Shown: in pieces, positions 9,280-23,278 of the stretch | Position numbering within the stretch: the first letter of the stretch is position 1 | Layout of the letters: every line of letters starts with the position of its first letter | NCBI GenBank assembly: GCA_021734125.1 | Contig: JAIPJN010000002.1 | Location: 1 to 57,502 of the forward strand | Direction: 5' to 3' | From: Patescibacteria group bacterium | GTDB lineage: Bacteria > Patescibacteriota > Patescibacteriia > JAGPKW01 | Length of the DNA stretch: 57,502 nt | Program-made: the position numbers and the translations under genes | Notes under the pieces: generated by a model | Seen by the model: the letters and a program-made list of their open reading frames with translations, nothing else | The model's database searches: none | Told to the model about the DNA's origin: nothing

Positions 9280-10503
9280 TTAATTTATCGCATTTGCTGT
9301 TGTCCAACAAACTTGTAAATTATAACCACCTGTTGGTCCATTTATATCTAAAACTTCTCCTGCAAAATATAAATTATCTATTATTTTTGATTTCATATTT
9401 TTTGGGTCAACTTCTTTTAAATCAACACCACCAGAGGTAATTATAGCTTTTTCAAAACCGTCTAATTTTAAAATATTAAATTCACATTCTTTCAATAAGT
9501 GAATCAATTTATTTCTTTCTTCTTTTGTTACAGAATTTACTTTTTTATCAGGATCTATTCCTGATTTTTTTATTACAAAAGGAATTAATTTTTGAGGTAA
9601 TAATTTATTTAAACTATTTTTAAAATCTTTATTATTTAATTTTTCAAAATCTCTTAAAATTCTATCATCTAACTTTTTGAAGTCTAAAGCAGGCTTGAAG
9701 TCTATCTTTAATCTAATGTTTAGATATTTATCTAAGTATTCAGAGATTTTTTCACTCATATCTAATATTATAGGCCCACTCATTCCTTCTCTTGTAAAAA
9801 TTGCTTCTCCAAAATTATCTATTAATTTTTTATTTTCAAAATATATAGAAATATTTACATTTTTTAAACTTAATCCTTCTAATTCTTTTATATTTTCTTT
9901 AAGAATAATAGAGCAAAGAGCAGGTTTTGGCTCTATAATTTTATGTCCTAATTTTTCTGCAAATTTATAACCATCTCCCGTTGATCCTGTTAGTGGATAT
10001 GATTTTCCACCTGTTGTTATTACAAAATTTTCTGCTTCTATTTCTTTTTTATTTTCTAAAATAATTTTTTCTATTTTATTTTTATTTTTCACAATATCCA
10101 AAACGGGCGAATTTTTTAATACTTCCACTTTATATTTTTCTAAATTTCTTTTTAGTATTTGAAGCACATCTTTTGCATTTCCTGTTTTTGGAAAAATTCT
10201 ATTTCCTCTTTCATTTTCTGTTTTTAATCCATTTTCTTCAAAAAAAGAAACAATATCGAAATTATTGAATTTAGAAAAAGATGAAAATAAAAATTTTCCA
10301 TTATTTCCATATTTTGAAATAAATTCACGAAAATCAGGCTCAGAATTAGTTATATTACATCTACCTTTTCCTGTAATTAATAATTTAATTCCAATTTTAG
10401 AATTTTTTTCTATCAAAATTACAGATTTTCCAGATTCAGCTAAAGAAATTGCAGAAAATATTCCAGCGGGACCAGCACCAATAATACAAAAATCGTAAAT
10501 CAT
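9280..10503 (-). CDS. NAD(P)/FAD-dependent oxidoreductase, HI0933/YhiN/BaiN family
   Basis: N-terminal YDFCIIGAGPAGIFSA dinucleotide fold. C-terminal ...YFAGEVLDINGPTGGYNLQ is typical of this family. Confidence 0.85.
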   Translation of the reverse strand: MIYDFCIIGAGPAGIFSAISLAESGKSVILIEKNSKIGIKLLITGKGRCNITNSEPDFREFISKYGNNGKFLFSSFSKFNNFDIVSFFEENGLKTENERGNRIFPKTGNAKDVLQILKRNLEKYKVEVLKNSPVLDIVKNKNKIEKIILENKKEIEAENFVITTGGKSYPLTGSTGDGYKFAEKLGHKIIEPKPALCSIILKENIKELEGLSLKNVNISIYFENKKLIDNFGEAIFTREGMSGPIILDMSEKISEYLDKYLNIRLKIDFKPALDFKKLDDRILRDFEKLNNKDFKNSLNKLLPQKLIPFVIKKSGIDPDKKVNSVTKEERNKLIHLLKECEFNILKLDGFEKAIITSGGVDLKEVDPKNMKSKIIDNLYFAGEVLDINGPTGGYNLQVCWTTANAIN

Positions 10504-10586
10504 AAAAAATTAATTAAAATATTAAGTTTATTATATATTATTCAACATAAACACGCCAATAAATGGGTTATTTTATAAACAACGTA

Positions 10587-10886
10587 GGAACGCGCCGTGG
10601 CGCGTTCCATCCATTTTAATATTAACGAATTATTCACAAAAATATATTGTAGTGGCCAGCCATGGCTGGCCATGCACATTGTTCGCCCGTTTTATTTCAA
10701 AATAATAAATAAAAAAATAATATTATTTTATAAAATAATGTAGTGGCCAACCATGGTTGGCCATTGAAAATTATGCGTCCATTTTATATTATGTGCCCGT
10801 TTTGTTTAAATATAAAATTAAACAAATATTGTGGGAACGCGCCGTGGCGCGTTCCCATATGATTTATAAAATAATCACAAATATTT
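10587..10886. repeat. cluster of four GC-rich palindromes (B, A, A', B) with conserved flanks
   Basis: ggaacgcgccgtggcgcgttcc at 10587-10608 and 10834-10855. tggccagccatggctggcca at 10653-10672. tggccaaccatggttggcca at 10743-10762. 26-bp tail at 10861-10886. Confidence 0.9.
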
Positions 10887-11147
10887 ATACAAATCGTGTT
10901 TTCCTATTGATATAAATAATATATCTCCATTTTTCATTCTTTCAAAAATAATCCTATATCCAGAAGTTATAGAAATAGACCAAATACCTTGAAATTTTCC
11001 ATGTAACTCATGAAGCCTTAAAGATGGATGTAAAGGATTATCTTTAAAAATTATTTCTTTTTTAATTGCTATATTAAGAATATTTTCAGGTAAATTTTTT
11101 AATTCTTTAACAAATTTTTTTGAATATAAAATTTTATTTATAATCAT
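10875..11147 (-). CDS. type II toxin, RelE/StbE family
   Basis: 90 aa. HELHGKFQGIWSISITSGYRIIF...ISIGKHDLY matches the RelE/ParE-superfamily pattern. Overlaps the upstream antitoxin gene by 4 nt. Confidence 0.75.
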   Translation of the reverse strand: MIINKILYSKKFVKELKNLPENILNIAIKKEIIFKDNPLHPSLRLHELHGKFQGIWSISITSGYRIIFERMKNGDILFISIGKHDLYKYL

Positions 11148-11371
11148 AAAAGTTCAGATAAAGAATTTGCAGATATAGATTCACCTTTTTTATATTCCTC
11201 TCTAGAAGATTTAATAGTTTTTAATAACTCATCTTCAGAAATTAAATCATTATCTAAAGAAAATAAATATTTTACATATGAAGAAACAGAATCAAAATTT
11301 CTTTTTTTTGATTTTTTTTTGATATCTTCAAGAATTTCAGAGGGAAGAGATATGCTTAGGACTTTTCTCAT
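11144..11371 (-). CDS. RHH/CopG-like antitoxin
   Basis: 75 aa. N-terminal VLSISLPSEILEDIKKKSKKRNFDSVSSYVKYL is ribbon-helix-helix-like. Position upstream of and overlapping the toxin. Confidence 0.6.
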   Translation of the reverse strand: MRKVLSISLPSEILEDIKKKSKKRNFDSVSSYVKYLFSLDNDLISEDELLKTIKSSREEYKKGESISANSLSELL

Positions 11372-11404
11372 AATTTTTTATATAAATTTTATTATAATAA
11401 TTAA

Positions 11405-11434
11405 ATTGTATTACATTTGTATTACAGATGTCAA
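11405..11434 (-). promoter_or_regulatory. candidate TA promoter with overlapping direct-repeat operator
   Basis: On the minus strand: TTGACA (11434-11429), an 18-nt spacer, then TACAAT (11410-11405). ttgtattaca is repeated at 11406-11415 and 11417-11426, an 11-bp period. Confidence 0.5.
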
Positions 11435-11483
11435 ATTAATATTCGCTCATTTTGAATAAAAATAAATATCAATAAAATATTTT

Positions 11484-11738
11484 TTGACACAATTTTTTTT
11501 GAATGATATTATAAATCTGCAATTAAAAATGCAAAATTTTAAGATTGAGGTATTTCTTTTTGAAATGCCTCTTTTCTTTTTATTTAATTTTTTTGCACAT
11601 ATTAATAACAATACATATTTTTTTTGCAAAAATAAACATAAAGGGTTAAAATAAAGTTGTTTTAAGCCCAATATTGAGCTTAGAATTAATGGATGTTTTT
11701 TGTATAGAGCATCCAAAAAAGGATGCTTAATTTTTTTA
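11484..11738 (+). promoter_or_regulatory. near-consensus promoter followed by two terminator-like hairpins upstream of hsdM
   Basis: TTGACA 11484-11489, 17 nt, tgaTATTAT 11507-11512. Hairpin gaggtatttc/gaaatgcctc 11547-11571 plus T-run. Hairpin agcatcc/ggatgct 11708-11727 plus T-run ending 16 nt before the hsdM ATG. Confidence 0.5.
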
Positions 11739-11753
11739 TGTTATATAAATAAA

Positions 11754-13265
11754 ATGAATGATAATAAAAATTTAAATTTTGAAACTCAGCTTTTTAAAGC
11801 GGCTGATAAACTTCGTAAAAATATTGATGCTGCAGAATACAAAAATGTAGTTCTTGGACTCATTTTTCTAAAATATATTTCTGAATCTTTTCAAGAACTC
11901 TATGATAAGCTAGCTCAAGATGAATTTTCTGATCCAGAAGATAGGGATGAATATAAAGCAGAAAATATATTTTTCGTACCAGAACAAGCAAGATGGAGAA
12001 ATTTACAGGCCAAGGCAAAACTCCCAACTATAGGACAAGAACTTGATGGTGCAATGGAATCTATAGAAAAAGAAAATTCAGAACTTCGTAATGTACTGCC
12101 AAAAGTTTTTGGAAAACCAAACTTAGATAAAACATCGCTTGGTCAACTTATAGATTTAATTTCAAATACAGAACTTAAAGCAACGAGTGAAAATTCAAAA
12201 GATCTTTTTGGTCGTGTTTATGAATATTTTCTAGGAGAATTTGCTAATGCAGAAGGTAAAAAAGGAGGGCAATTTTATACTCCAAAATCTATAGTAAAAC
12301 TAATGGTAGAAATGATTGAACCATATAAAGGAAAGGTTTATGACCCTGCTTGTGGTTCTGGTGGTATGTTTGTAATGAGTGAAAAATTTGTTTTAGGACA
12401 CCAAGGTAGTATTAAAGATATAAATATTTATGGGCAAGAATCTAATCAAACAACTTGGAAATTATCTAAAATGAATCTTGCTATTCGTAATTTATATTCG
12501 AAAGAAGTTGTTTGGAATACTGAAGGTAGTTTTTTAAAAGACGCTCATCCTGATTTAAAAGCAGATTTTGTATTAGCAAATCCTCCATTTAATCAATCAG
12601 ATTGGGGGCAAGAGTATTTGCAAGAAGATGCAAGATGGAAATATGGATTACCACCTGCCGGAAATGCAAATTTTGCTTGGATACAACATATGCTTTATCA
12701 TTTAGCACCACATGGAATAATGGCAACAGTTCTTGCAAATGGGTCACTTAGTTCCAATACATCAGGAGAAGGAGAAATTAGAAAAAATTTAATACAAAAT
12801 TATTTGGTAGAATGTATAGTTGCTCTTCCAAAACAACTTTTTTATAATACAGGAATTCCAGCCTGTATTTGGTTTTTAAGAAAAGAAAAACAAAGTAAAA
12901 GCAAAGAAATACTTTTTATAGATTCTTCAGAAATGGGATTTATGAAAGACAGAGTACATAGAGAGTTTGTAGATGAAGATATAAATAAAATTTCAGAAAC
13001 TTATCATAATTGGAGAAAAAATTCTGAAAAATATAAAGATATTAAGGGATTTTGTAAATCAGCGAGACAGGGAGAAGTAGAAAAAAATGGATTTGTATTA
13101 ACTCCTGGACGTTATGTAGGGATAGTTGATGCAATAGATGATGGTATTCTTTTTGAAGAAAAAATGGAAAAATTAACAACTACTCTAAAAGAACAGATGG
13201 ATAAAGAAAAAGAAATGAATGAGGAAATAAAAAAACAGTTAGAGAAAATAGGATTTAAGATTTAA
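11754..13265 (+). CDS. hsdM: type I restriction-modification methyltransferase subunit
   Basis: HsdM N-terminal domain (LFKAADKLRKNIDAAEYKNVVLGLIFLKYISE), motif I DPACGSGGM and motif IV LANPPFN. ATG 11754 preferred over the non-ATG start at 11700. Confidence 0.92.
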   Translation: MNDNKNLNFETQLFKAADKLRKNIDAAEYKNVVLGLIFLKYISESFQELYDKLAQDEFSDPEDRDEYKAENIFFVPEQARWRNLQAKAKLPTIGQELDGAMESIEKENSELRNVLPKVFGKPNLDKTSLGQLIDLISNTELKATSENSKDLFGRVYEYFLGEFANAEGKKGGQFYTPKSIVKLMVEMIEPYKGKVYDPACGSGGMFVMSEKFVLGHQGSIKDINIYGQESNQTTWKLSKMNLAIRNLYSKEVVWNTEGSFLKDAHPDLKADFVLANPPFNQSDWGQEYLQEDARWKYGLPPAGNANFAWIQHMLYHLAPHGIMATVLANGSLSSNTSGEGEIRKNLIQNYLVECIVALPKQLFYNTGIPACIWFLRKEKQSKSKEILFIDSSEMGFMKDRVHREFVDEDINKISETYHNWRKNSEKYKDIKGFCKSARQGEVEKNGFVLTPGRYVGIVDAIDDGILFEEKMEKLTTTLKEQMDKEKEMNEEIKKQLEKIGFKI

Positions 13266-13267
13266 AA
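13210..13267 (+). repeat. 58-bp direct repeat, copy 1 (the true 3' end of hsdM)
   Basis: aagaaatgaatgAGgaaataaaaaaacagttagagaaaataggatttaagatttaaaa. Matches 14510-14567 except for 2 nt, exactly 1300 bp apart. Confidence 0.95.
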
Positions 13268-13272
13268 GATAC

Positions 13273-13310
13273 TTGACATAATTGACATAATGTCAACTAA
13301 ATAGTAAAAT
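13273..13310 (+). promoter_or_regulatory. candidate fic promoter overlapping a 15-bp perfect palindrome
   Basis: ttgacataa (13273-13281), then TTGACATAATGTCAA (13282-13296). 17 nt after its TTGACA comes TAAAAT (13305-13310). A related split half-site pair lies at 13313-13337. Confidence 0.5.
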
Positions 13311-13344
13311 AATGGACATAATCGATATAATGTAAACTAATTTT

Positions 13345-14475
13345 ATGGAAAATATTCAGATAGGTAAATATATACAACAACCTAATGATTATAGGGCGTT
13401 TATCCCGAATAATTTTCCGGTGCCTGAAATGCTTAAAATTCCACAAGAATTATTAAATAAAGCAGTTTTAGCTGAAAGGTTATTAGGAAAGTTAGACGGA
13501 GTAACTCAAACTTTACCAGATATTGATTTTTTTATAAGAATGTTTAGTTATAAAGATGCCACTAATTCTTCTCAAATAGAAGGCACTCAAGCTACTATGG
13601 CGGATGCTTTGGAATTATCAGTTAAAATAAATGATAAAGAAACTGATGCAAATGATATTATTTTTTATATAAAAGCATTAGATTACGGTTTAAAAAAAAT
13701 ACAAGAAATACCATTATCCTTAAGATTTATTAAAGAAATTCATAAAGAATTAATGTATGGGGCTAGATCTACTCATTATTCTGCTCCTGGGGAATTTAGA
13801 GCTTCACAAAATTGGTTAGGAGGAGTGACTATAAAACAAGCTTCTTTTATCCCTATTCCTCATGATCAAATGTATGAAAAACTATCTGATTTAGAAAAAT
13901 TTTTACATAATAAAACTTTAACTTTACCAATTATAAATATTGCATATTCTCATGCTCAATTTGAAACAATCCATCCATTTTTAGATGGTAATGGAAGAGT
14001 TGGAAGACTTCTAATAACTTTTTTATTACAATATAATAAAACACTAGAAAAACCAGTTTTATTTTTATCTTCATTTTTTAAAAAACATCAAAAATTGTAT
14101 TATCAAAAATTAAATAATTATCATAATGGAGAAGTTTTTGAGTGGTTAGAATTTTTTTTAGATGGAGTTATTGAAACGGCTAAAGAATCTATTGAAATAT
14201 CTCAAAATGTAAGGAAAATAAAGGAAAAAGATATGACAAAAATTCAATTATTAGGTAAAAGAGAATCAAAAAGTACAATGAAAGTTTTATTTTATTTATT
14301 TTCTAATCCTATTATTACAAATTCTAAAATTGCTGAAGTTACTAATTTATCAAGACAGGGCTCAGTAAATATGAGTAATAGATTAAAAGAATTAGGGATA
14401 TTAAATGAAATACCATCAAAAACCAATTATGATAAAAAATATATTTATACGGAATATTTTAATACTTTTGTTTAA
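13345..14475 (+). CDS. Fic-family protein (Fic core with C-terminal wHTH-like tail)
   Basis: Canonical Fic motif HPFLDGNGRVGR, with SSQIEGT upstream of it as in long Fic proteins. The C-terminus ...SKIAEVTNLSRQGSVNMSNRLKELGIL is HTH-like. Confidence 0.9.
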   Translation: MENIQIGKYIQQPNDYRAFIPNNFPVPEMLKIPQELLNKAVLAERLLGKLDGVTQTLPDIDFFIRMFSYKDATNSSQIEGTQATMADALELSVKINDKETDANDIIFYIKALDYGLKKIQEIPLSLRFIKEIHKELMYGARSTHYSAPGEFRASQNWLGGVTIKQASFIPIPHDQMYEKLSDLEKFLHNKTLTLPIINIAYSHAQFETIHPFLDGNGRVGRLLITFLLQYNKTLEKPVLFLSSFFKKHQKLYYQKLNNYHNGEVFEWLEFFLDGVIETAKESIEISQNVRKIKEKDMTKIQLLGKRESKSTMKVLFYLFSNPIITNSKIAEVTNLSRQGSVNMSNRLKELGILNEIPSKTNYDKKYIYTEYFNTFV

Positions 14476-14509
14476 AAAAATATGTCTAATAGTAAAGAAA
14501 ATACAAATA

Positions 14510-14567
14510 AAGAAATGAATGCAGAAATAAAAAAACAGTTAGAGAAAATAGGATTTAAGATTTAAAA
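14510..14567 (+). repeat. 58-bp direct repeat, copy 2 (orphan copy of the hsdM 3' end)
   Basis: Same sequence as 13210-13267. With an upstream ATG (14482) it forms a 27-codon mini-ORF ending ...EMNAEIKKQLEKIGFKI, which mimics the HsdM C-terminus. Confidence 0.95.
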
Positions 14568-14569
14568 AT

Positions 14570-15022
14570 ATGGAAAAATATTTATTTAATTTAGTAAAAG
14601 ATAATATAGTTTGGTTTGTATTAGTTGCCTTATTTCTACTTTTTATTGTAATTCCCATACAAAGTATAAAAATATTTTCGAAATTAATTAAAAATAATAG
14701 AAAACCTGGGTATGGTGAACGTCTAGCAGATAGATATATTGATTTATATTTAAATAAAGAATCTAGAATTTTTAAGAAAAAAATGAATATTTCCATAAAT
14801 ACAAAATCAAGTATTTTAAGTTTTAATGTTAATGGAATGGGGCAAGTAGATAAAAAATTACAAGAATTAGATTTATTAGAAATAAAAGATAATAAAATTA
14901 TTTTTTCTAAAAATAAAAAAGATAGATTTAAAAATTATATAATTTTTAAATTAGTTAGATTTTATTTAATCAATTTTTTAGGAGATAAAAAAGATTTATA
15001 TAAAATAAATAAAAATGCCTAA
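14570..15022 (+). CDS. hypothetical protein, single N-terminal TM helix (ORF-A)
   Basis: 150 aa. Hydrophobic segment IVWFVLVALFLLFIVIPI. ATG lies 5 nt after the duplicated hsdM stop. Its stop overlaps the next ATG (ATGCCTAA). Confidence 0.6.
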   Translation: MEKYLFNLVKDNIVWFVLVALFLLFIVIPIQSIKIFSKLIKNNRKPGYGERLADRYIDLYLNKESRIFKKKMNISINTKSSILSFNVNGMGQVDKKLQELDLLEIKDNKIIFSKNKKDRFKNYIIFKLVRFYLINFLGDKKDLYKINKNA

Positions 15023-15731
15023 TATAGAAGAAAATACAACTAAAGGAATTAATACAGAAATTAAATATAATTGGCAATTATTTGCAGAAAGTTTTTTAAC
15101 TATTACAAAATGCGGTTGTGAAAAAATTTTGAATGATAATAAAATCGGTATGACAACTGAAGGTTTCGAAGACAGAAAATTAATTATTTCTACTGTATAT
15201 AATTTTAAACACTCTTTAGAAATTATATTAAAAACTTTAATTAAGAATTTTTATCCAGAAAAATTGAAAACTACTCATGATATAGAAAACGTTTTCAAAG
15301 ATATATATCCCACTATTTTTAATAATATTATTTTAAAATATAAATCTAAAAAGAAATTATTAAATAATAATAATTATGAAGATCTATTTGAAGTTACTGA
15401 ATTAACTGAAACCTCTTTAAAAGATAAATTTGTAAAATTACAAGAATTAGTAGACTATTATATTAATATTTCTTTTATAAAAAAAGAAATTATAAGTATA
15501 AAAGATGTAAAAAATACATTATTTAAATATCCAGAACAAAAAGATAAACAAGTATCTTTAGATTATTTACATTTTATGAGAAAAGAAAATTTTGAGGAAG
15601 TTAAGAATATTATTAAAAAAGTTAATAAAGATTGTGATGAATTACTGGGAATTATGAGATTAATTTTAATTATAAATATTTGGTTTAAAAAATTAGAAAA
15701 TTTATCAAATAATTCAGAAAATGAAAAATAA
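15015..15731 (+). CDS. hypothetical protein (ORF-B), no recognisable motif
   Basis: 238 aa. 8-nt overlap with ORF-A and 11-nt overlap with the hsdS start, so translationally coupled. No family signature I can name. Confidence 0.65.
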   Translation: MPNIEENTTKGINTEIKYNWQLFAESFLTITKCGCEKILNDNKIGMTTEGFEDRKLIISTVYNFKHSLEIILKTLIKNFYPEKLKTTHDIENVFKDIYPTIFNNIILKYKSKKKLLNNNNYEDLFEVTELTETSLKDKFVKLQELVDYYINISFIKKEIISIKDVKNTLFKYPEQKDKQVSLDYLHFMRKENFEEVKNIIKKVNKDCDELLGIMRLILIINIWFKKLENLSNNSENEK

Positions 15732-16956
15732 TAAATTTAAAATTCAAAATAAAAATTTCTCTCCAAGTGGTTGGGTGGAGACGACTTTGGGGGAGGTTTG
15801 CGAGATAAATCCAACAGAATCTTTACCAAAAGGAAAAATAGCAAAATGTGTCCCTATGGATTGTATTAATTCTTTCACAAGACAAATTTCAAGATTTGAA
15901 GAAAAAGAATTTAATGGAGGAATGAAATTTAGAAATGGAGATACTTTACTTGCAAGAATTACACCTTGTTTGGAAAATGGGAAAACTGCTTATGTAGATT
16001 TTTTAGATGAAAATGAAATTGGTTTTGGTTCTACTGAATATATTGTGATTAGAGAAAAACAAGGATTGAGTGATAAAAAATTTCTTTATTATCTAGCTGT
16101 ATCTCCAAGCTTTAAAGAAATTGCAATTAAAGCAATGACTGGAACTTCTGGAAGACAAAGGGTTCAAATTGATGTTTTGGTAAATAAAAACTTTCTTCTC
16201 CCGCCTCTCCCCGGACAACAAGCCATCGCTTCTGTTCTCTCGGCTTTTGATGATAAGATTGAATTATTAAGAGAAGAAAATAAAACGCTGGAAGAGACAG
16301 GACAAGTAATTTTTAAAGAATGGTTTGGAAAATATAGTGTAGATAAACCCGAAGAATTACCAGAAGGATGGAGAGTTGGGAAGTTGGGGGAAAAAAATTT
16401 TGCAGAAATTATTGGAAGTGGAATAAATGAATTTGATGGTGAAAAAATATATTTAGCAACAGCTAATGTTTCAGATTCAAATATTACAAATACAAATGAA
16501 AAAATAACATTTAAAGAAAGGCCTTCTCGTGCAAATATGCAACCGATAGAAAAAAGTATTTGGTTTGCAAAAATGCAAGATAGCAGAAAATTATTAATGT
16601 TTGATGATTATTCAGAATTTGAAATAGAAAATTTTATTTTATCAACAGGTTTTGCAGGAATTAAAACAACAGAAATTTCTCATTATTTTATGTGGTGTTT
16701 TATTTTAAGCAAAGAGTTTGATGAATTAAAAAATAATATGGCAAATGGTGCGGTTCAAATAGCAGTAAATAATACAAATTTAGAAAAAATTGAAATTCTA
16801 ATTCCAGATAATGAAACACTTGTAAAATTTAATGAATTAGCAAAACCAATATTTAAAAAAATTTACGATAACAATTCTCAAATCCAATCCCTCGCTTGTA
16901 GTCGTGATGAAATTTTGCCGAAACTCATGGCTGGGATGGTTAGAGTAAATTTTTAA
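15721..16956 (+). CDS. hsdS: type I restriction-modification specificity subunit
   Basis: 411 aa with two target-recognition halves. Conserved spacer region LPPLPGQQAIASVLSAFDDKIELL and C-terminal SLACSRDEILPKLMAGMVRV are typical of HsdS. Confidence 0.9.
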   Translation: MKNNKFKIQNKNFSPSGWVETTLGEVCEINPTESLPKGKIAKCVPMDCINSFTRQISRFEEKEFNGGMKFRNGDTLLARITPCLENGKTAYVDFLDENEIGFGSTEYIVIREKQGLSDKKFLYYLAVSPSFKEIAIKAMTGTSGRQRVQIDVLVNKNFLLPPLPGQQAIASVLSAFDDKIELLREENKTLEETGQVIFKEWFGKYSVDKPEELPEGWRVGKLGEKNFAEIIGSGINEFDGEKIYLATANVSDSNITNTNEKITFKERPSRANMQPIEKSIWFAKMQDSRKLLMFDDYSEFEIENFILSTGFAGIKTTEISHYFMWCFILSKEFDELKNNMANGAVQIAVNNTNLEKIEILIPDNETLVKFNELAKPIFKKIYDNNSQIQSLACSRDEILPKLMAGMVRVNF

Positions 16957-16974
16957 TTTTAACAAGGGAAAAAT

Positions 16975-17847
16975 ATGTCAATTGCTACTAAATTTGAAAA
17001 CCTTTGTAAAAATATACTAATAAGTCAAAATGATGCTGATAAAATTTCAAGTCGTTATAAGGCCATTACAAAAAGACTTAATAAAGATTTTTGGAATACA
17101 GAATCAGAAGAAAGTCATAGTTTATATGTTGGGTCATATGGAAGAGACACAGATATTCATGTAAGTGATGTGGATATGATTTTTCAACTACCGTATTCAG
17201 TGTATGAAACATACAACAATTATCTAGGGAATGGACAATCTTCATTATTACAAGCCGTAAGAACCTCTTTACAAAAAACATATTCAACAACACATATAAA
17301 AGGTGATGGTCAAATTATTGGTATAAATTGGGATGATGGTATTTGTTTTGAAATAGTCCCTTGTTTTATAAATAAAGATGATAGCTATACATTTCCTGAT
17401 AGTAATAATGGAGGTTCTTGGAAAACGACAAATCCTAAGCCAGAAATTAAAGCAATTAGAGAAAAAAATGTTGAATGCAATTATAATCTAAAAAGTCTTT
17501 GTAGAATGATTAGAGCATGGAAAGATAATTGTAGTGTTCCTCTCGGTGGTTTATTGATTGATACTTTTGCATATAATTTTTTGAGTAATTGGCAATATAA
17601 AGATAAATCGTTTTTATATTATGATTGGATGGTAAGAGATTTTTTTGAATACTTAAAAAATCAAAATGAAGATCAAGAATATTGGTTGGCTCCTGGAAGT
17701 AATCAGAGAGTAAATCGCAAAGGTAAATTTAATTACAAAGCAAAACTAGCATATAACACTATTTTGGAAGCTATGAAAGCAGAAGAATATAAATATGAGT
17801 ATACTGCCAATCAAAAATGGAAAGAAGTGTTTGGTTTAAAATTTTAA
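16975..17847 (+). CDS. SMODS-like (CD-NTase-related) pol-beta-fold nucleotidyltransferase
   Basis: GSYGRDTDIHVSDVDMIF (G-S...D-x-D) and a downstream acidic residue in CFEIVPCF. Size and layout match second-messenger oligonucleotide/dinucleotide synthetase domains. Confidence 0.75.
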   Translation: MSIATKFENLCKNILISQNDADKISSRYKAITKRLNKDFWNTESEESHSLYVGSYGRDTDIHVSDVDMIFQLPYSVYETYNNYLGNGQSSLLQAVRTSLQKTYSTTHIKGDGQIIGINWDDGICFEIVPCFINKDDSYTFPDSNNGGSWKTTNPKPEIKAIREKNVECNYNLKSLCRMIRAWKDNCSVPLGGLLIDTFAYNFLSNWQYKDKSFLYYDWMVRDFFEYLKNQNEDQEYWLAPGSNQRVNRKGKFNYKAKLAYNTILEAMKAEEYKYEYTANQKWKEVFGLKF

Positions 17848-17864
17848 TTTTTAAGGATAACAAT

Positions 17865-18419
17865 ATGGAAAAAAATAATTTATCAATTGTAAGACAACAA
17901 TTTGCACAGTGTGTTTTTAATCATAAGATGCACGAAAAAGCTTCTGATCGTTTAGATGCTTTGCAAGATAAAATAAAATGGATAAATATAATACTTTTGG
18001 CTTTGGTTATTGTGTTTCTTATATTACAAATATATTTTCCAGAACAAACTATATTTGGTGGTATTTCAACTGGCATAACTGTTTTTGAAATTTTATATGC
18101 TTTCTTTCAAAAAGAATTTTCTATTGAAGATAGAGCTAAAGAACACAAAAAAATAGCATTACAATATTTAGGGCTTAGAGATAAATATAAAAATTTTGTG
18201 ATTGATATAATGAATGATTTAGAAAGTGAAAAAATAGTATCAAAAAGAGATTTATTACAGGATCAATACCAAATTATAAATAGCCTGTCTCTTCAAACGA
18301 CATATGCAGACTATGAGAAAGCTCAATTAGATTTACTTGGAAAGACAAATAAGGACGAACAATTTACTTGGTCTGATACCGAGATAAATCGTTTTTTACC
18401 AAAAGATTTACATATTTAA
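17865..18419 (+). CDS. SLATT-domain 2TM protein
   Basis: 184 aa from ATG 17865 (ORF-track 17817 overlaps the previous gene). Helical N-terminus, then two adjacent TM helices (WINIILLALVIVFLILQIYF, IFGGISTGITVFEILYAFF), then a helical tail. Sits directly after the SMODS gene. Confidence 0.7.
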   Translation: MEKNNLSIVRQQFAQCVFNHKMHEKASDRLDALQDKIKWINIILLALVIVFLILQIYFPEQTIFGGISTGITVFEILYAFFQKEFSIEDRAKEHKKIALQYLGLRDKYKNFVIDIMNDLESEKIVSKRDLLQDQYQIINSLSLQTTYADYEKAQLDLLGKTNKDEQFTWSDTEINRFLPKDLHI

Positions 18420-18429
18420 AAATTTCACT

Positions 18430-21400
18430 ATGACTACACTAAACGAATCTAATATTGAACAAAACCTTATAGACCTTCTTATAAACCAAGGCTATGAGTA
18501 TTTTTATGGTCCAGACATTGCTCCATATTCTGCAAATCAGCAAAGAGAAAGATTTGATTCAGTAATTTTAGAAAATCATCTAAAAGCTTCTTTAAAAAGA
18601 TTAAATCCAAACATTCCAGAATCAGCAAGAGACGAAGCCTATCAAAATATTCTAAATTTAGGTTCACAGGATTTAATGGCAAATAATGAAAAATTTCATA
18701 ATTTTCTAACAAATGGAATAAATGTAGAATATTTTAATAATGGAAATACCGATAGTGTAAATGTAAAACTTTTTGATATAGAAAATATTGAAAATAATAG
18801 CTTTTGGGTAGTCAATCAATTTGTGATTAAAGAAAATAATAACGAAAAAAGGTTAGATGTCGTAATTTTTGTAAATGGATTGCCTTTAGTTGTTATAGAA
18901 TTAAAAAATGCAACAGATGAAAAGGCAACATTAGAAAGAGCTTTTACACAAATTCAAAATTATAAAAAAGCAGTGCCAAGTATTTTTTACTATAACTCAC
19001 TTTGTATTATTTCAGATGGAATAGATGCAAGAGTTTCTTCAATTTCCGCACAATTTAGTAGATTTCTCGCATGGAAATCACCAGAAAAAAGAGAAAATGG
19101 AAGATTACCAGAAATGCAAATTATGGTTGAAAGAATGTTTAATAAAAAAGTTTTACTTCATTTAATTAAATATAATACCGTTTTTGAACAGGAAGAAAAA
19201 AAAGATGAAAAGACAGGTTTATTATCTGTTGTAAAAATAAAAAAAGTTGCAGCATACCATCAATATTATGCAGTAGAAAAAGCTATAAAAGAAACATTAA
19301 GAGCAACAAAAGAAAAAGAAGGAAATAAAAAAATAGGAATAATTTGGCATACTCAAGGATCAGGAAAATCACTTTCAATGGTTTTTTATGCAGGGCAAAT
19401 AGTAATAGAACCAGAAATGAAAAACCCAACAATCGTAATTTTAACAGATAGAAATGATTTAGATGATCAACTTTTTAATACTTTTGGAAATTGTAAGCAA
19501 CTTCTTCGTCAAACTCCAGTTCAAGCAAAAAACAGAGAACATTTAAAAGAATTATTAAAAGTATCAAGCGGTGGAATTATTTTTACTACTATTCAAAAAT
19601 TTTCTCCAAGTGAAGGAAATATTTATGAAACATTATCAGAAAGATCAAATATTGTTGTAGTTGCAGATGAAGCCCATCGTAGTCAATATGGGTTTAAAGG
19701 AAGAGAGGTAGAGACAAAAGATGGTTCAGAAATAAGATATGGGAATGCAAAATATTTAAGAGATGCTTTACCAAAAGCTTCATTTATAGGATTTACAGGG
19801 ACACCAATCGAAAAAGAAGATAGATCAACAAGAGGAGTTTTTGGAGATGAAATAGATATTTATGATATTAGGCAATCAGTTGATGATGGCGCTACTGTTT
19901 TAATTAGTTATGAATCAAGATTAGTAAAAATTAGAATAGACCAGGAAGCAATAAGTAAAATTGATTATGCTGTAGATGAAATACAAGATGTTACTAAAGA
20001 ACAAATAGAAAAGGCGAAAAAGAAAAATTCAAAAATAGACGCAATCGTAGGACATCCTGATAGACTTAAAGATATTGCAAAAGATATTGTGGACCATTTT
20101 GAAGCAAGACAAAAAAGTTTTGAAGGGAAGGCAATGGTTGTTTGTATGACAAGACAAATAGCAGTAAATTTATATAAAGAGATTATTAATCTTTGCCCAG
20201 ATTGGCATAATGATGATTTAATGAAGGGAAATTTGAAAATTGTAATGACTTCAAGTAGTGATGATCCAGAAAGTTTTCAACCTCATCATACTAATAAGGA
20301 GGATAGAAAAAAACTTGCTCTAAGACTTAAAGATATAAATGATTCACTTAAAATGGTTATTGTTCAATCAATGTGGCTTACTGGTTTTGATGTTCCTTGT
20401 TTACATACCATGTATGTTGATAAAAAAATGCAAGGAGCAAATCTAATGCAAGCAATTGCCCGCGTAAATCGTGTTTATAAAGATAAACCAGGAGGATTAA
20501 TTGTTGATTATATTGGTATTGGACAAGATTTAAGAAATGCAATGAAAATTTATACTTCAAGCGGAGGAGAAGGTGAAGCTGTTCTTGATATTTCAGAAGT
20601 AATTGCAGGAATGAAAACAAAATTTGAAATAGTTGAACAAATGTTTTACGGATTTGATTATAAAGAATATTTTAAAGCAGAAAATAATGAAAAATTAACA
20701 ATCCTTCTTAATGCAACAAACTTTATACTACAAGATGAAAAATTAAAAAATAGATTTATTTCTGCAATTACTGCACTTTCAAAATTTTTTGCAATGGCAG
20801 TACCGAGTTTTGAATCAGAACAAATAAGAGATGAAGTTGCATTTTTTCAAGCAGTAAAAGCTCGTATTAATAAATTCACTCCAAGTGGTGGAAAATCAGA
20901 TAAACAAGTAGAAACGGCGATCAAGCAAATTGTTGAAGAAGCTTTAGCAAGTGATGGAGTTATAGATATCTTTAAAGCATCAGGAATTGAAACGCCTACT
21001 CTTGATATTTTATCAGAAGAGTTTTTGTTGGAGGTAAAAAATATGAAGCAAAAAAATATAGCTTTTGAATTACTTCGCAAACTTTTGAATGATGAAATAA
21101 AAATCAGAAAGATAAAAAATATGATACAAGGGAAAAAATTCTCTGAAATGTTAGAAAATATGATTAAAAAATACCACAATAATCAAATTGATACTGCACA
21201 AGTTATTCAAGAATTATGTGATATTGCTCGTGAAATGAAATTAGAAGATAAAAAAGCAGAAGATACTGGTCTTACTAAAGAAGAATATGCTTTTTATTCA
21301 ATATTAGCAGAAAATGAATCTACTAAATTTTTAGAAGATCAAAAAATGAAAGAATTAATACATATTATTGTAGATATAGTTCGTAAAAATGCTACTGTTG

Positions 21401-21558
21401 ATTGGGAAAAAAGAGAAGATGTAAGAGCAAAACTTAGAATAACAGTGAAAAAAATATTAATGAGATATGGATATCCACCAGATCTTGCAAGAATAGAAGC
21501 AGATAGAGTACTTGAACAAAGTGAATTATTAGCAAGTGAATTAACAAGTAATAATTAG
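18430..21558 (+). CDS. hsdR: type I restriction enzyme endonuclease subunit
   Basis: 1042 aa. N-terminal nuclease region (DVVIFVNGLPLVVIELK), helicase Walker A TQGSGKSLSM, VVADEAHRSQ DEAH box and a C-terminal HsdR domain. Confidence 0.93.
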   Translation: MTTLNESNIEQNLIDLLINQGYEYFYGPDIAPYSANQQRERFDSVILENHLKASLKRLNPNIPESARDEAYQNILNLGSQDLMANNEKFHNFLTNGINVEYFNNGNTDSVNVKLFDIENIENNSFWVVNQFVIKENNNEKRLDVVIFVNGLPLVVIELKNATDEKATLERAFTQIQNYKKAVPSIFYYNSLCIISDGIDARVSSISAQFSRFLAWKSPEKRENGRLPEMQIMVERMFNKKVLLHLIKYNTVFEQEEKKDEKTGLLSVVKIKKVAAYHQYYAVEKAIKETLRATKEKEGNKKIGIIWHTQGSGKSLSMVFYAGQIVIEPEMKNPTIVILTDRNDLDDQLFNTFGNCKQLLRQTPVQAKNREHLKELLKVSSGGIIFTTIQKFSPSEGNIYETLSERSNIVVVADEAHRSQYGFKGREVETKDGSEIRYGNAKYLRDALPKASFIGFTGTPIEKEDRSTRGVFGDEIDIYDIRQSVDDGATVLISYESRLVKIRIDQEAISKIDYAVDEIQDVTKEQIEKAKKKNSKIDAIVGHPDRLKDIAKDIVDHFEARQKSFEGKAMVVCMTRQIAVNLYKEIINLCPDWHNDDLMKGNLKIVMTSSSDDPESFQPHHTNKEDRKKLALRLKDINDSLKMVIVQSMWLTGFDVPCLHTMYVDKKMQGANLMQAIARVNRVYKDKPGGLIVDYIGIGQDLRNAMKIYTSSGGEGEAVLDISEVIAGMKTKFEIVEQMFYGFDYKEYFKAENNEKLTILLNATNFILQDEKLKNRFISAITALSKFFAMAVPSFESEQIRDEVAFFQAVKARINKFTPSGGKSDKQVETAIKQIVEEALASDGVIDIFKASGIETPTLDILSEEFLLEVKNMKQKNIAFELLRKLLNDEIKIRKIKNMIQGKKFSEMLENMIKKYHNNQIDTAQVIQELCDIAREMKLEDKKAEDTGLTKEEYAFYSILAENESTKFLEDQKMKELIHIIVDIVRKNATVDWEKREDVRAKLRITVKKILMRYGYPPDLARIEADRVLEQSELLASELTSNN

Positions 21559-21586
21559 TTTTATAAATAACTAAATCCTCAATCTA

Positions 21587-22213
21587 ATGAATAAACAAAT
21601 TCAAATCTTATATATTCACGGTGGGGGAACCTTTAAAAACAACGAAGAATACATAGAATATCTAAAAACAAAAGAAATAAAAATAGAAGAAACAGAAAGA
21701 TGGTCTGATGAATATTTTGATAAAAAATTATTAAAAAAATTCAAAATGATAAAACCAAAAATGCCATGCAAAGAAAATGCAAAATACGAAGAATGGAAAA
21801 TACAATTTGAAAGATATTTAGAAAAAATGGATCAAGATTTAGTGTTAATAGGAACATCACTCGGAGGAATATTCCTAGCAAAATATCTATCAGAAAATAA
21901 ATTAAATAAAAACATAATATCAACATATCTAATAGCACCACCATTTGATGCAAAATCAGTGAATGAAGAAGAAGTTTTTGGAGGATTCGAATTAAAAGAT
22001 AATCTAGAAAAAATAGAAGAAAATTGCAAAAAAGTAGTGTTCATGTTTTCAAAAAACGATAATGTAGTTAATATTTCAGCAAAAACAGGGTATCAAGAGA
22101 AATTAAAAAAATCAAAATTCATAGAATTTAAAGATAAAAATGGACATTTCAGAATATCAAAATTCCCAGAAATAATAGAAATGTTAAAAGAGGATTATAA
22201 AAATTTCAAATAA
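21587..22213 (+). CDS. alpha/beta hydrolase, YdeN/RBBP9-like serine hydrolase
   Basis: 208 aa. ILYIHGGG, nucleophile elbow GTSLGG, C-terminal ...NGHF. Lies 28 nt after hsdR with no terminator between. Confidence 0.65.
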   Translation: MNKQIQILYIHGGGTFKNNEEYIEYLKTKEIKIEETERWSDEYFDKKLLKKFKMIKPKMPCKENAKYEEWKIQFERYLEKMDQDLVLIGTSLGGIFLAKYLSENKLNKNIISTYLIAPPFDAKSVNEEEVFGGFELKDNLEKIEENCKKVVFMFSKNDNVVNISAKTGYQEKLKKSKFIEFKDKNGHFRISKFPEIIEMLKEDYKNFK

Positions 22214-22221
22214 ACATCGTA

Positions 22222-22322
22222 GGAACGCGCCGTGGCGCGTTCCACCCAAATAAAAAATAAAATAATGTAGGAACGCGCCGTGGCGCGTTCCTACGTGATT
22301 TATAAAATAATCACAAATATTT
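22222..22322. repeat. two ggaacgcgccgtggcgcgttcc palindromes plus 26-bp tail
   Basis: Palindromes at 22222-22243 and 22270-22291. The tail gatttataaaataatcacaaatattt at 22297-22322 is identical to 10861-10886. Confidence 0.9.
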
Positions 22323-22444
22323 TAAAAATAAAATAAATAAAAAATTAATCCAAATTTAACCTAAAATTAATCCAATTTTAATTATTAATTTATTTGTATT
22401 ATGGTAAAATTATATTAGATAAGGATTAATATATTTTATAGATT

Positions 22445-23278
22445 ATGAATAATAATGAAGTAGATAAAAACAATAAAATAGCTCTTTTTGAAAAAAAAGA
22501 AATCCGTAAAATTTGGCATAATAACGAATGGTATTTTTCAGTGGTTGATGTAGTAGGAATTTTGACTGATAGTTTAAATTATCAGTCCTCAAGAAAATAT
22601 TGGAATAAACTTTCTCAAAGGCTTCATGAAGAAAATAGTGAAGTGGTGACAAAATGTCACCAGTTAAAATTACTTGCTACAGATGGAAAAATGAGATTAA
22701 CAGATTGTGCTAATACAGAAGGAATATTAAGAATTATTCAATCTATTCCTTCTCCCAAAGCAGAACCGTTTAAAAGATGGCTTGCTAAAGTTGGATATGA
22801 AAGAATAGAAGAAATAGAAAATCCAGAATTAGCTCAGAAAAGAATGAAAAAAATTTATGAAGCTAAAGGCTATCCTGAAGATTGGATAGATAAAAGAATC
22901 CGAGGTATTTCTATTCGTCAAAATTTAACAGATGAATGGAGAAATAGGGGTTTTTCAAATCCAAGTGATTATTCAATTCTTACTGCTGAAATTAGTAAAG
23001 CTACATTTGGGATGACCCCTAGTGAATACAAAAAATTAAAAAATATTCCAGAAAAATCCAAAATAAATCTTAGAGATAATATGACAGACCTTGAATTAAT
23101 TTTTACCATGCTTGGAGAAAGAGTAACTACAGAAATTTCTAAAAAAGAAGAGCCCGATGGAATGGTAGAAAATAAAAAAGTTGCAAAAAGAGGTGGTAAA
23201 GTTGCTGGAGATGCAAGAAAAGGAACTGAAAAAGAAATAGGAGATACAATTATTAATAAGGGGAATTATTTAAATTAA
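22445..23278 (+). CDS. Bro-N domain protein (DinD / phage antirepressor-like)
   Basis: N-terminal FEKKEIRKIWHNNEWYFSVVDVVGILTDS is a Bro-N pattern. The C-terminal part resembles DinD-type proteins. Confidence 0.6.
   Translation: MNNNEVDKNNKIALFEKKEIRKIWHNNEWYFSVVDVVGILTDSLNYQSSRKYWNKLSQRLHEENSEVVTKCHQLKLLATDGKMRLTDCANTEGILRIIQSIPSPKAEPFKRWLAKVGYERIEEIENPELAQKRMKKIYEAKGYPEDWIDKRIRGISIRQNLTDEWRNRGFSNPSDYSILTAEISKATFGMTPSEYKKLKNIPEKSKINLRDNMTDLELIFTMLGERVTTEISKKEEPDGMVENKKVAKRGGKVAGDARKGTEKEIGDTIINKGNYLN

Follow-up and report, generated by a model that had tools for sequence, protein, structure and literature searches.

The subject of this analysis is a pair of adjacent open reading frames (ORFs), here called ORF-A and ORF-B, which lie in a Type I restriction-modification (R-M) operon of a Patescibacteria group bacterium (GenBank assembly GCA_021734125.1). 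The window referred to below is the whole stretch of DNA that was analysed, namely positions 1 to 57,502 of the forward strand of contig JAIPJN010000002.1 (57,502 nt), and its relevant features are collected in Table 1. The two genes are closely joined to each other and to hsdS: the stop codon of ORF-A falls within the start of ORF-B in an 8-nt overlap (ATGCCTAA, 15015-15022), and the start of hsdS falls within the end of ORF-B in an 11-nt overlap (ATGAAAAATAA, 15721-15731). An earlier reading made from the sequence alone (the original prediction) had presented them as a coupled pair of a membrane protein and a soluble protein, wedged between hsdM and hsdS in a defence operon, and as a candidate for a genuinely uncharacterised module. 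When the sequence was re-read, the coordinates, the lengths and both overlaps given there were all correct, and Pfam and PADLOC confirm the defence operon, which combines the Type I R-M genes with a SoFic gene and a type I cyclic oligonucleotide-based antiphage signalling system (CBASS). The placement between hsdM and hsdS holds on the downstream side, where hsdS is overlapped, but not on the upstream side: ORF-A is not adjacent to hsdM in the window, and a Fic/DOC gene and a 27-codon mini-ORF intervene. In the sister strain represented by contig L033, ORF-A begins 4 nt after hsdM.

The GC content of the ORF-A/ORF-B region is 17-18%, compared with 25-30% in the neighbouring genes, and stop codons are frequent in this 1162-nt region because of its composition. 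When the region was shuffled 2000 times, the longest six-frame ORF had a mean length of 61 aa and never exceeded 147 aa; the observed frames reach 150 and 238 aa. Codon usage was scored as log-odds after training on 30 long genes of the window. ORF-A reaches +0.235 bits per codon and ORF-B +0.281, next to +0.279 for the neighbouring SLATT gene; all frames other than the annotated ones are negative, with -1.2 to -1.7 for the shifted sense frames and -0.16 to -1.6 for antisense. The GC1>GC2>GC3 periodicity is present in ORF-A and ORF-B alike. Since their length exceeds that of the shuffles and their codon usage is in frame, both are real-looking, coding-like genes.

Neither ORF-A nor ORF-B is matched directly by any Pfam, PADLOC, NCBIfam or PHROG model, which agrees with the view that ORF-B belongs to an unnamed family. 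The members of this family were collected by HMMER, run exhaustively over 1.84 billion representatives (E<=1e-3). The scan returned 99 representative clusters homologous to ORF-B; nearly all are stand-alone proteins of 190-245 aa (mostly 200-240 aa), 25-37% identical, and their sources are mostly Patescibacteria, including Parcubacteria, Peregrinibacteria, Roizmanbacteria and Saccharibacteria. A word-indexed homology search with ORF-B gave self-matches only, tblastn of ORF-B against plasmids and phages gave no match, and a viral collection searched with a 19-sequence family alignment yielded nothing. From alignments of 50 and then 97 full-length members, a family signature was obtained that consists of W20 and F23; N63-x-[KR]65-H66-x2-E69-x3-K73; H88-[D/N]; and D164-x2-N167-x2-F170-[R/K]171-Y172-P173. 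H66, E69, K73, H88 and D164 occur without exception (97/97), and N167 and P173 are kept in 96/97; position 171 is always basic (Arg in 59 and Lys in 38 of the 97; K171 in ORF-B), and position 89 is Asp in 57/97 and Asn in 29/97. The statement that ORF-B shows no motif that can be named is contradicted by this invariant signature of a divergent HEPN protein, with its Ex3K, its upstream His and its basic residue in F-[RK]-Y-P. As a separate observation, split, truncated or frameshifted members occur at several loci (L014/L020 7194-7787, L021 6930-7671, L017 7968-8402 and L029 41-406), which suggests that genes of the ORF-B family frequently decay.

When the 50 aligned members were scanned singly against Pfam (E<=1), PF05168 (HEPN) was matched by 18 of them (best 3.8e-5), and no other Pfam family was matched by more than two. 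The PF05168 gathering score of 22 is reached by two relatives, P0009 (24.3 bits) and P0011 (22.5 bits), and the match of P0011 spans profile positions 3-112 of 117. The AlphaFold model of ORF-B calculated with the family alignment is all-alpha, with a predicted local distance difference test score (pLDDT) of 84.6 and a predicted TM-score of 0.84; the single-sequence model (pLDDT 39.6) is uninformative. The long helices of the model comprise residues 12-40, 48-79, 90-117, 122-150 and 193-233, and an ordered loop that follows long helices (residues 151-183) carries the D..N..FKYP motif. E69 and K73 lie on helix 48-79 and match the acidic helix-2 Ex3[KR] motif defined for HEPN (PMC3710099), and H88 falls within the loop that connects helices 48-79 and 90-117, in the manner of the alternative His of the AF0298/AbiV type. 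According to Anantharaman et al. (PMC3710099), AF0298-type HEPN-T proteins and AbiV keep the basic residue and the helix-2 Ex3[KR], have lost the His, and possess instead another, strongly conserved His within the helix-2/3 insert; HEPN subgroups without Rx4-6H, such as the AF0298-type and some nucleotidyltransferase-fused forms, are known (PMC3710099). The residues K171, H88 and E69/K73 of ORF-B would then correspond to the alternative active site of the AF0298/AbiV type. It is quite probable that ORF-B is a member of an unnamed family of the HEPN superfamily, whose branch comes nearest to HEPN-T (PF05168) and resembles AF0298 and AbiV in its active-site layout. The reported absence of a P-loop from ORF-B also agrees with our reading, as neither a P-loop nor an ABC match was seen in its 238 aa.

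For ORF-A, the description as a protein with a single N-terminal transmembrane (TM) helix and a basic soluble part is in agreement with its hydropathy (Kyte-Doolittle 19-residue maximum of 2.85, centred on residue 21) and its isoelectric point of 9.97, and the charges flanking the hydrophobic segment suggest, through the positive-inside rule, an N-out/C-in topology. A word search of 5.8 billion proteins gave self-matches only; tblastn against plasmids and phages gave no match; a search of viral contigs found no relative outside the same strain cluster; and a comparison with the six-frame ORFs of every retrieved locus, even at E<=20, returned the same strain cluster only. The carriers of ORF-A are L026-28 (identical) and L033 (98% identical). 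When ORF-A was aligned with the upstream neighbours of ORF-B relatives (the DUF6941 proteins and the 174-aa protein of L016), no convincing similarity was seen, and Pfam found in it no NTP_transf, minimal nucleotidyltransferase (MNT) or DNA-binding antitoxin domain. Compared with L033, ORF-A carries 5 nt differences in 450 nt (98.9% nt identity), all of which are non-synonymous and too few to decide how selection acts on it. The stretch 14476-15020 contains no tandem repeats, and its predicted RNA folding is no better than that of shuffles (z = +0.17). No recognisable Shine-Dalgarno sequence precedes ORF-A, and the neighbouring bona fide genes are also without one. The best description of ORF-A is that of a young membrane protein specific to this lineage, co-translated with ORF-B and outside the conserved make-up of the family. 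A membrane partner and a soluble partner forming a conserved module, as had been supposed, is not what the family shows: ORF-A has no homologue in the databases searched or at about 20 other loci, and the closest relative of ORF-B directly follows hsdM.

About 21 distinct loci of the ORF-B family were examined, and about 5 of the 21 distinct contexts lie within or next to R-M genes (L019, L015, L029, L008 and the lineage of the window and L033). In four lineages (L019, L015, L029 and window/L033), the homologue occupies the hsdM-hsdS gap. In L019 the genes run in the order hsdM, RhuM, homologue, hsdS, coiled-coil protein, hsdR and YgjP-like; in L015 the order is hsdM, RhuM and homologue, followed by the contig end. 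The homologue in L029, which is the closest relative of ORF-B (51% identity), lies 6 nt past an hsdM-type C-terminus ('...LESIGFKI*') with no ORF-A in between, and its reading frame is cut short at 121 aa. The homologue in L008 lies 6 nt downstream of a 1100-aa type IIG R-M enzyme. This survey upholds the idea that homologues are often lodged in R-M operons. The R-M association of the family is strong at 5/21, yet non-exclusive; the background for a random gene adjoining an R-M methylase was taken as <<1%, which is a rough assumption and not a measured value. Other neighbours with a defence flavour are a reverse transcriptase (L022), a weak Abi_alpha match (L012), DUF559 with Fic and an SNF2 helicase (L001), and RelB with GIY-YIG (L004). 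Ordinary contexts include positions after ArgRS (L017), beside atpC and a bAvd-like gene (L010), after DUF72 (L034) and among a series of small unknown genes (L036).

In most relatives, 3-6 nt separate the gene from its upstream neighbour, and the upstream partner is not conserved, being DUF6941 (L011 and L013), RhuM (L019 and L015) or none. No MNT neighbour was seen at the other family loci. The ORF-B family behaves like a small mobile cassette. Two further observations concern the upstream neighbours. The RhuM genes (L019 1950-2966 and L015 1299-2294) stand between hsdM and the homologue in two independent Type I operons, that is, in the slot held by Fic in the window. In addition, a DUF6941 gene lies 3-6 nt upstream of the homologue at L011 2436-2858 and L013 5045-5419, and DUF6941 and the ORF-B homologue may constitute a conserved two-gene sub-type.

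The history of the hsdM-hsdS gap can be followed through two nested direct repeats. In the D1 repeat, which copies the 3' end of hsdM, the best 60-mer matches at 57/60 positions; in the D2 repeat (14473-14532 and 15006-15065, the latter at the start of ORF-B), 49/60 positions match; in shuffled sequence, a 60-mer match never exceeded 42/60. The sister-strain contig L033, whose hsdM is 96% identical to that of the window, has the order hsdM, 4 nt, ORF-A and ORF-B' (its allele of ORF-B), with no Fic gene and no mini-ORF. Because D1 flanks SoFic and L033 lacks Fic, the Fic cassette of about 1300 nt is a presence/absence polymorphism made by recombination. ORF-B' is only about 75% identical in nt to ORF-B (L033 1254-1420 compared with 15015-15180 of the window), with flanks of 96-99% identity; the comparison indicates an allele replacement confined to ORF-B. 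Between the two alleles, dS is about 0.8 and dN/dS is 0.28, and ORF-B is under purifying selection. The first 34 nt of the mini-ORF are identical at 33/34 positions to the start of ORF-B' of L033, and the rest is the hsdM tail, so that the mini-ORF looks like the scar of an illegitimate crossover. The simplest reading is that a recipient operon of the order hsdM, ORF-A, ORF-B and hsdS recombined with a donor operon of the order hsdM, Fic and ORF-B', leaving the chimeric mini-ORF behind. Through such recombination between donor and recipient operons, the hsdM-hsdS gap behaves as a cassette-exchange site in this population, at which Fic and ORF-B alleles are swapped. Independent Logan assemblies break exactly at the repeat.

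Table 1. Features of the R-M operon around ORF-A and ORF-B (positions are those of the window).
Feature	Position	Strand	Evidence or remarks
ORF-A	14570-15022	+	150 aa, ATG start; one N-terminal TM helix (~residues 12-31), basic C-terminal domain predicted cytoplasmic
ORF-B	15015-15731	+	238 aa, ATG start; probable stand-alone non-canonical HEPN-like protein
sigma70-like promoter of hsdM	11484-11512		11/12 consensus matches
hsdM, Type I R-M methyltransferase	11700-13265	+	Pfam N6_Mtase 1.6e-109, HsdM_N 7.8e-25
Direct repeat D1, copy 1 (hsdM 3' end and its stop codon)	13201-13267	+	67 nt, 93% identical to 14501-14567
Promoter-like site of the Fic gene	13282-13310		11/12 matches
SoFic-type Fic/DOC gene	13345-14475	+	PADLOC SoFic 3.3e-103; Pfam Fic_N and Fic
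Chimeric 27-codon mini-ORF (MSNSKENTNKEMNAEIKKQLEKIGFKI*)	14482-14565	+	D2 copy 1 and D1 copy 2
hsdS, specificity subunit	15721-16956	+	Pfam Methylase_S 2.8e-18
SMODS cyclase of type I CBASS	16975-17847	+	Pfam SMODS 4.6e-54; PADLOC Cyclase 5.3e-139
SLATT_4 2TM effector of type I CBASS	17817-18419	+	Pfam SLATT_4 1.7e-31; PADLOC 2TM effector 3.8e-37
hsdR, restriction subunit	18430-21558	+	Precomputed Pfam HSDR_N, ResIII, SWI2_SNF2 and T1RH-like_C on the identical L026 protein

Within the operon, the true start of hsdM is likely the ATG at 11751. From hsdM to hsdR, no terminator-like site was found between the genes, except for one weak match within hsdM. The cyclase and SLATT_4 genes overlap by 31 nt and form a complete type I CBASS pair placed between hsdS and hsdR, and the next gene after hsdR encodes a serine hydrolase. 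A single Type I R-M operon is in this way host to three separate inserted defence cassettes. Ahead of the Fic gene, copies of a 9-nt motif (ATAATTGAC / ATAATCGAC) surround the promoter-like site (13269-13331); the motif could be an operator for the C-terminal winged-helix domain of the Fic protein. Directly upstream of the R-M operon and divergent from it, the minus strand (10875-11371) carries a YafQ/RelE/ParE-type toxin of 90 aa with an overlapping putative antitoxin of 75 aa. GC-rich palindromic hairpins stand just outside both ends of the defence island (10629-10787 and 22210-22303), in a genome of 24% GC; one of them contains GGCCAACCATGGTTGGCC / GGCCAGCCATGGCTGGCC, with a folding z of -4.4, and the other has GTAGGAACGCGCCGTGGCGCGTTCCTAC repeats. 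These hairpins may be terminators or repeats of a boundary or insertion site. Rfam, scanned over 10500-22500, matched nothing but hairpins below threshold, all of them outside ORF-A and ORF-B.

Taken together, we favour, with a probability of roughly 0.55, the reading that ORF-B is a stand-alone, Patescibacteria-centred HEPN branch that serves as an RNase-type toxin or abortive-infection layer of the R-M operon, with ORF-A as a local add-on. ORF-B would be co-transcribed with hsdM, hsdS and hsdR from the hsdM promoter and would act as a metal-independent RNase-type toxin or abortive-infection effector, in which the basic residue K171, an upstream His (H88 or H66) and E69 may replace Rx4-6H in catalysis. 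It would then back up DNA restriction as a second layer that is directed at RNA, alongside the Fic toxin, which modifies proteins, and the CBASS pair. Such a layered role is suggested by analogy with PrrC/EcoprrI, with the cleavage of rRNA by AbiV and with the three-level 'R-M + HEPN + DOC/RhuM' defence that was proposed in 2013 (PMC3710099). The candidates for keeping ORF-B silent are ORF-A, locally, or the R-M complex; ORF-A, being translationally coupled to ORF-B, would at most tether or restrain it at the membrane.

Several results weigh against this assignment. ORF-B itself has no Pfam HEPN match even at E<=1, so that its link to PF05168 is transitive, through its relatives, and at the superfamily level only. 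No significant match was obtained by Foldseek with the ORF-B model (best E of 0.25 in PDB and 0.1 in BFVD); the toxin-like entries, weak as they are, speak for HEPN and comprise only 7bxo_F, which is a HEPN toxin (TM-score on target 0.55, probability 0.80), and, at rank 13 in BFVD, a phage protein named 'HEPN domain-containing protein'. Among PDB sequences, the family profile found nothing, and the two most HEPN-like members retrieved nothing relevant. As the original prediction had remarked, there is no clear Rx4-6H: the motif is absent from the family, and a His follows the basic residue at a distance of 4-7 residues in only 2/97 members (K-Y-P-E-Q-K-D-K in ORF-B). In ORF-B, as in 39% of the family, Lys stands at the putative catalytic basic position, an unusual feature for a HEPN RNase, and no PADLOC defence model matches ORF-B. 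Concerning the genomic contexts, the expected enrichment in defence islands is real, but it is not exclusive, since about half of the contexts are housekeeping operons; in one of them (L032 6001-6600), an operon for Fe-S cluster assembly, the family member lies between sufD and sufS, separated from them by 12 and 6 nt, an odd site for a putative toxin gene. Finally, ORF-A shows no positive sign of purifying selection, unlike hsdM (omega 0.24) and ORF-B (0.28).

Among the alternatives, ORF-A and ORF-B might form a toxin-antitoxin (TA) or addiction pair, in which the upstream ORF-A would neutralise ORF-B, for example by membrane sequestration; the pair would mainly stabilise the R-M operon, or it would set off abortive infection upon the loss of ORF-A. 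HEPN proteins are frequent TA toxins, and the small upstream gene with its 8-nt stop/start overlap, which is kept as ATGTCTAA in L033, has the classic layout of such pairs, and tightly coupled small upstream genes are seen in some relatives as well (DUF6941 in L011 and L013, a 74-aa ORF in L004 and a 174-aa ORF in L016). On the other hand, ORF-A had no homologue in the searches made and carries no MNT or DNA-binding antitoxin domain, the upstream neighbours of the relatives are mutually unrelated or absent, and the closest relative directly follows hsdM. Moreover, a near-identical ORF-A (98.9% nt) accompanies two ORF-B alleles that are about 75% identical, which argues against a co-evolved, specific partnership. 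It is unlikely that the two genes are a pair of this kind.

ORF-B could also be a catalytically inactive HEPN-like adaptor that binds a ligand or a protein and, for example, modulates the Type I methylase or restriction complex. The loss of Rx4-6H and the interchange of Arg and Lys at position 171 point in this direction, as does the location of ORF-B where hsdM couples to hsdS, and motif-less HEPN domains can be substrate-binding modules (Anantharaman et al., PMC3710099). However, five invariant residues (His, Glu, Lys, His and Asp) across 97 sequences of 20-35% identity point to an active site more than to a scaffold, and many family members lie far from any R-M gene, so that an R-M-specific role could not be general. 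An inactive adaptor is for these reasons rather improbable.

More far-reaching proposals can also be formulated, either a two-component abortive-infection module in which ORF-A holds a non-canonical HEPN RNase, with a His/Glu/Lys active site in place of Rx4-6H, inactive at the membrane and releases it upon phage infection or inactivation of the R-M system, or a single-gene effector with a new HEPN catalytic arrangement that extends across the candidate phyla radiation (CPR); we consider these improbable. The pair is not a categorically new module: it consists of an unnamed HEPN member in a described genomic theme and a strain-specific orphan. The claim of a genuinely uncharacterised module is to be withdrawn to this extent, since ORF-B is a new family of a well-known superfamily of toxins and RNases, and the embedding of such genes in R-M operons beside Fic/RhuM was described in 2013 (PMC3710099).

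A reading in which the ORF-A region has no role as a protein, either because the ORF is fortuitous or in decay or because the region serves as an RNA antitoxin against ORF-B, is very unlikely. A precedent exists in abiV2, where the small 'ORF' upstream of HEPN-AbiV is a non-coding RNA, and the orphan status of ORF-A, the non-synonymous nature of 5/5 substitutions relative to the sister strain and the lack of a recognisable Shine-Dalgarno sequence would accord with it. Against this, 150 open codons in DNA of 17% GC exceed all 2000 shuffles, the in-frame codon usage is on a par with that of the neighbouring genes, which likewise do without a Shine-Dalgarno sequence, and the ATG of ORF-A stands 4 nt past the upstream stop codon and its end overlaps the start of ORF-B. 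The RNA-antitoxin reading was rejected, as the region shows neither repeats nor structure. The H...HD...D pattern is the signature of the HD superfamily, and the order and spacing of H66...H88-D89...D164 resemble it, but a metal-dependent HD-type phosphohydrolase or nuclease was rejected as hardly credible, because an Asn in 29/97 members at position 89 (Asp in 57/97) is incompatible with an essential metal ligand and no HD-family Pfam model is among the family-level matches listed, compared with 18/50 for HEPN.

Patescibacteria, or CPR bacteria, have tiny genomes with few recognised defence systems beyond R-M. A HEPN-like family of about 100 clusters that is unnamed in Pfam, PADLOC, NCBIfam and PHROGs would provide them with an additional candidate layer, immune or toxic, that targets RNA, and it would supply a further natural HEPN active site without Rx4-6H. 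The locus itself is a clean, strain-resolved case of cassette exchange between hsdM and hsdS and bears on how defence islands are assembled.

Comparison with known systems places the probable HEPN protein ORF-B closest to HEPN-T (PF05168), especially the AF0298-type (PDB 2hsb). The shared features are the all-alpha bundle, the helix-2 Ex3K, a basic residue at the Arg position of Rx4-6H without the His, and a conserved His that lies N-terminal to the basic residue in the helix-2/3 insert. At ~220 aa, however, the ORF-B domain has about double the length of HEPN-T (117 profile positions), contains a helical hairpin as an insertion and has a long helix at its C-terminus; it has no adjacent minimal nucleotidyltransferase and has an extra invariant motif of its own, D-x2-N-x2-F-[RK]-Y-P. 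In the HEPN-MNT (HepT-MntA) TA system, the layout of two overlapping genes with HEPN downstream is shared, and 7bxo_F is the best toxin-like Foldseek match; the upstream gene here is a TM orphan and not a nucleotidyltransferase, and no Rx4HxY motif is present.

The best functional analogy would be AbiV of Lactococcus (type III TA), which, like ORF-B, is a stand-alone HEPN protein of similar size (201 aa) with a small upstream element. HEPN-AbiV is a metal-independent RNase that degrades rRNA and blocks translation, and AbiV has been grouped with HEPN-T for its alternative His (Anantharaman et al., PMC3710099). There are differences: no sequence match is detectable, HEPN_AbiV is not among the listed Pfam matches of ORF-B (E<=1) or the top family-level matches of 50 relatives, and lactococcal AbiV uses R91/H97 of the Rx4-6H motif, of which the His is absent in the ORF-B family. 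The AbiV antitoxin is an RNA, whereas the ORF-A region has no RNA-like features.

PrrC/RloC in Type I operons (EcoprrI) differ from ORF-B in having an N-terminal ABC-ATPase and a canonical Rx4-6H, neither of which it possesses. They share with it the placement of a HEPN gene inside an hsdM/S/R operon, often with Fic/DOC or RhuM, and the published logic for HEPN genes in R-M operons is that of a latent RNase as a back-up to restriction (PMC3710099). The ORF-B family extends, and does not change, this picture of multilayer defence by R-M, HEPN and Fic/RhuM.

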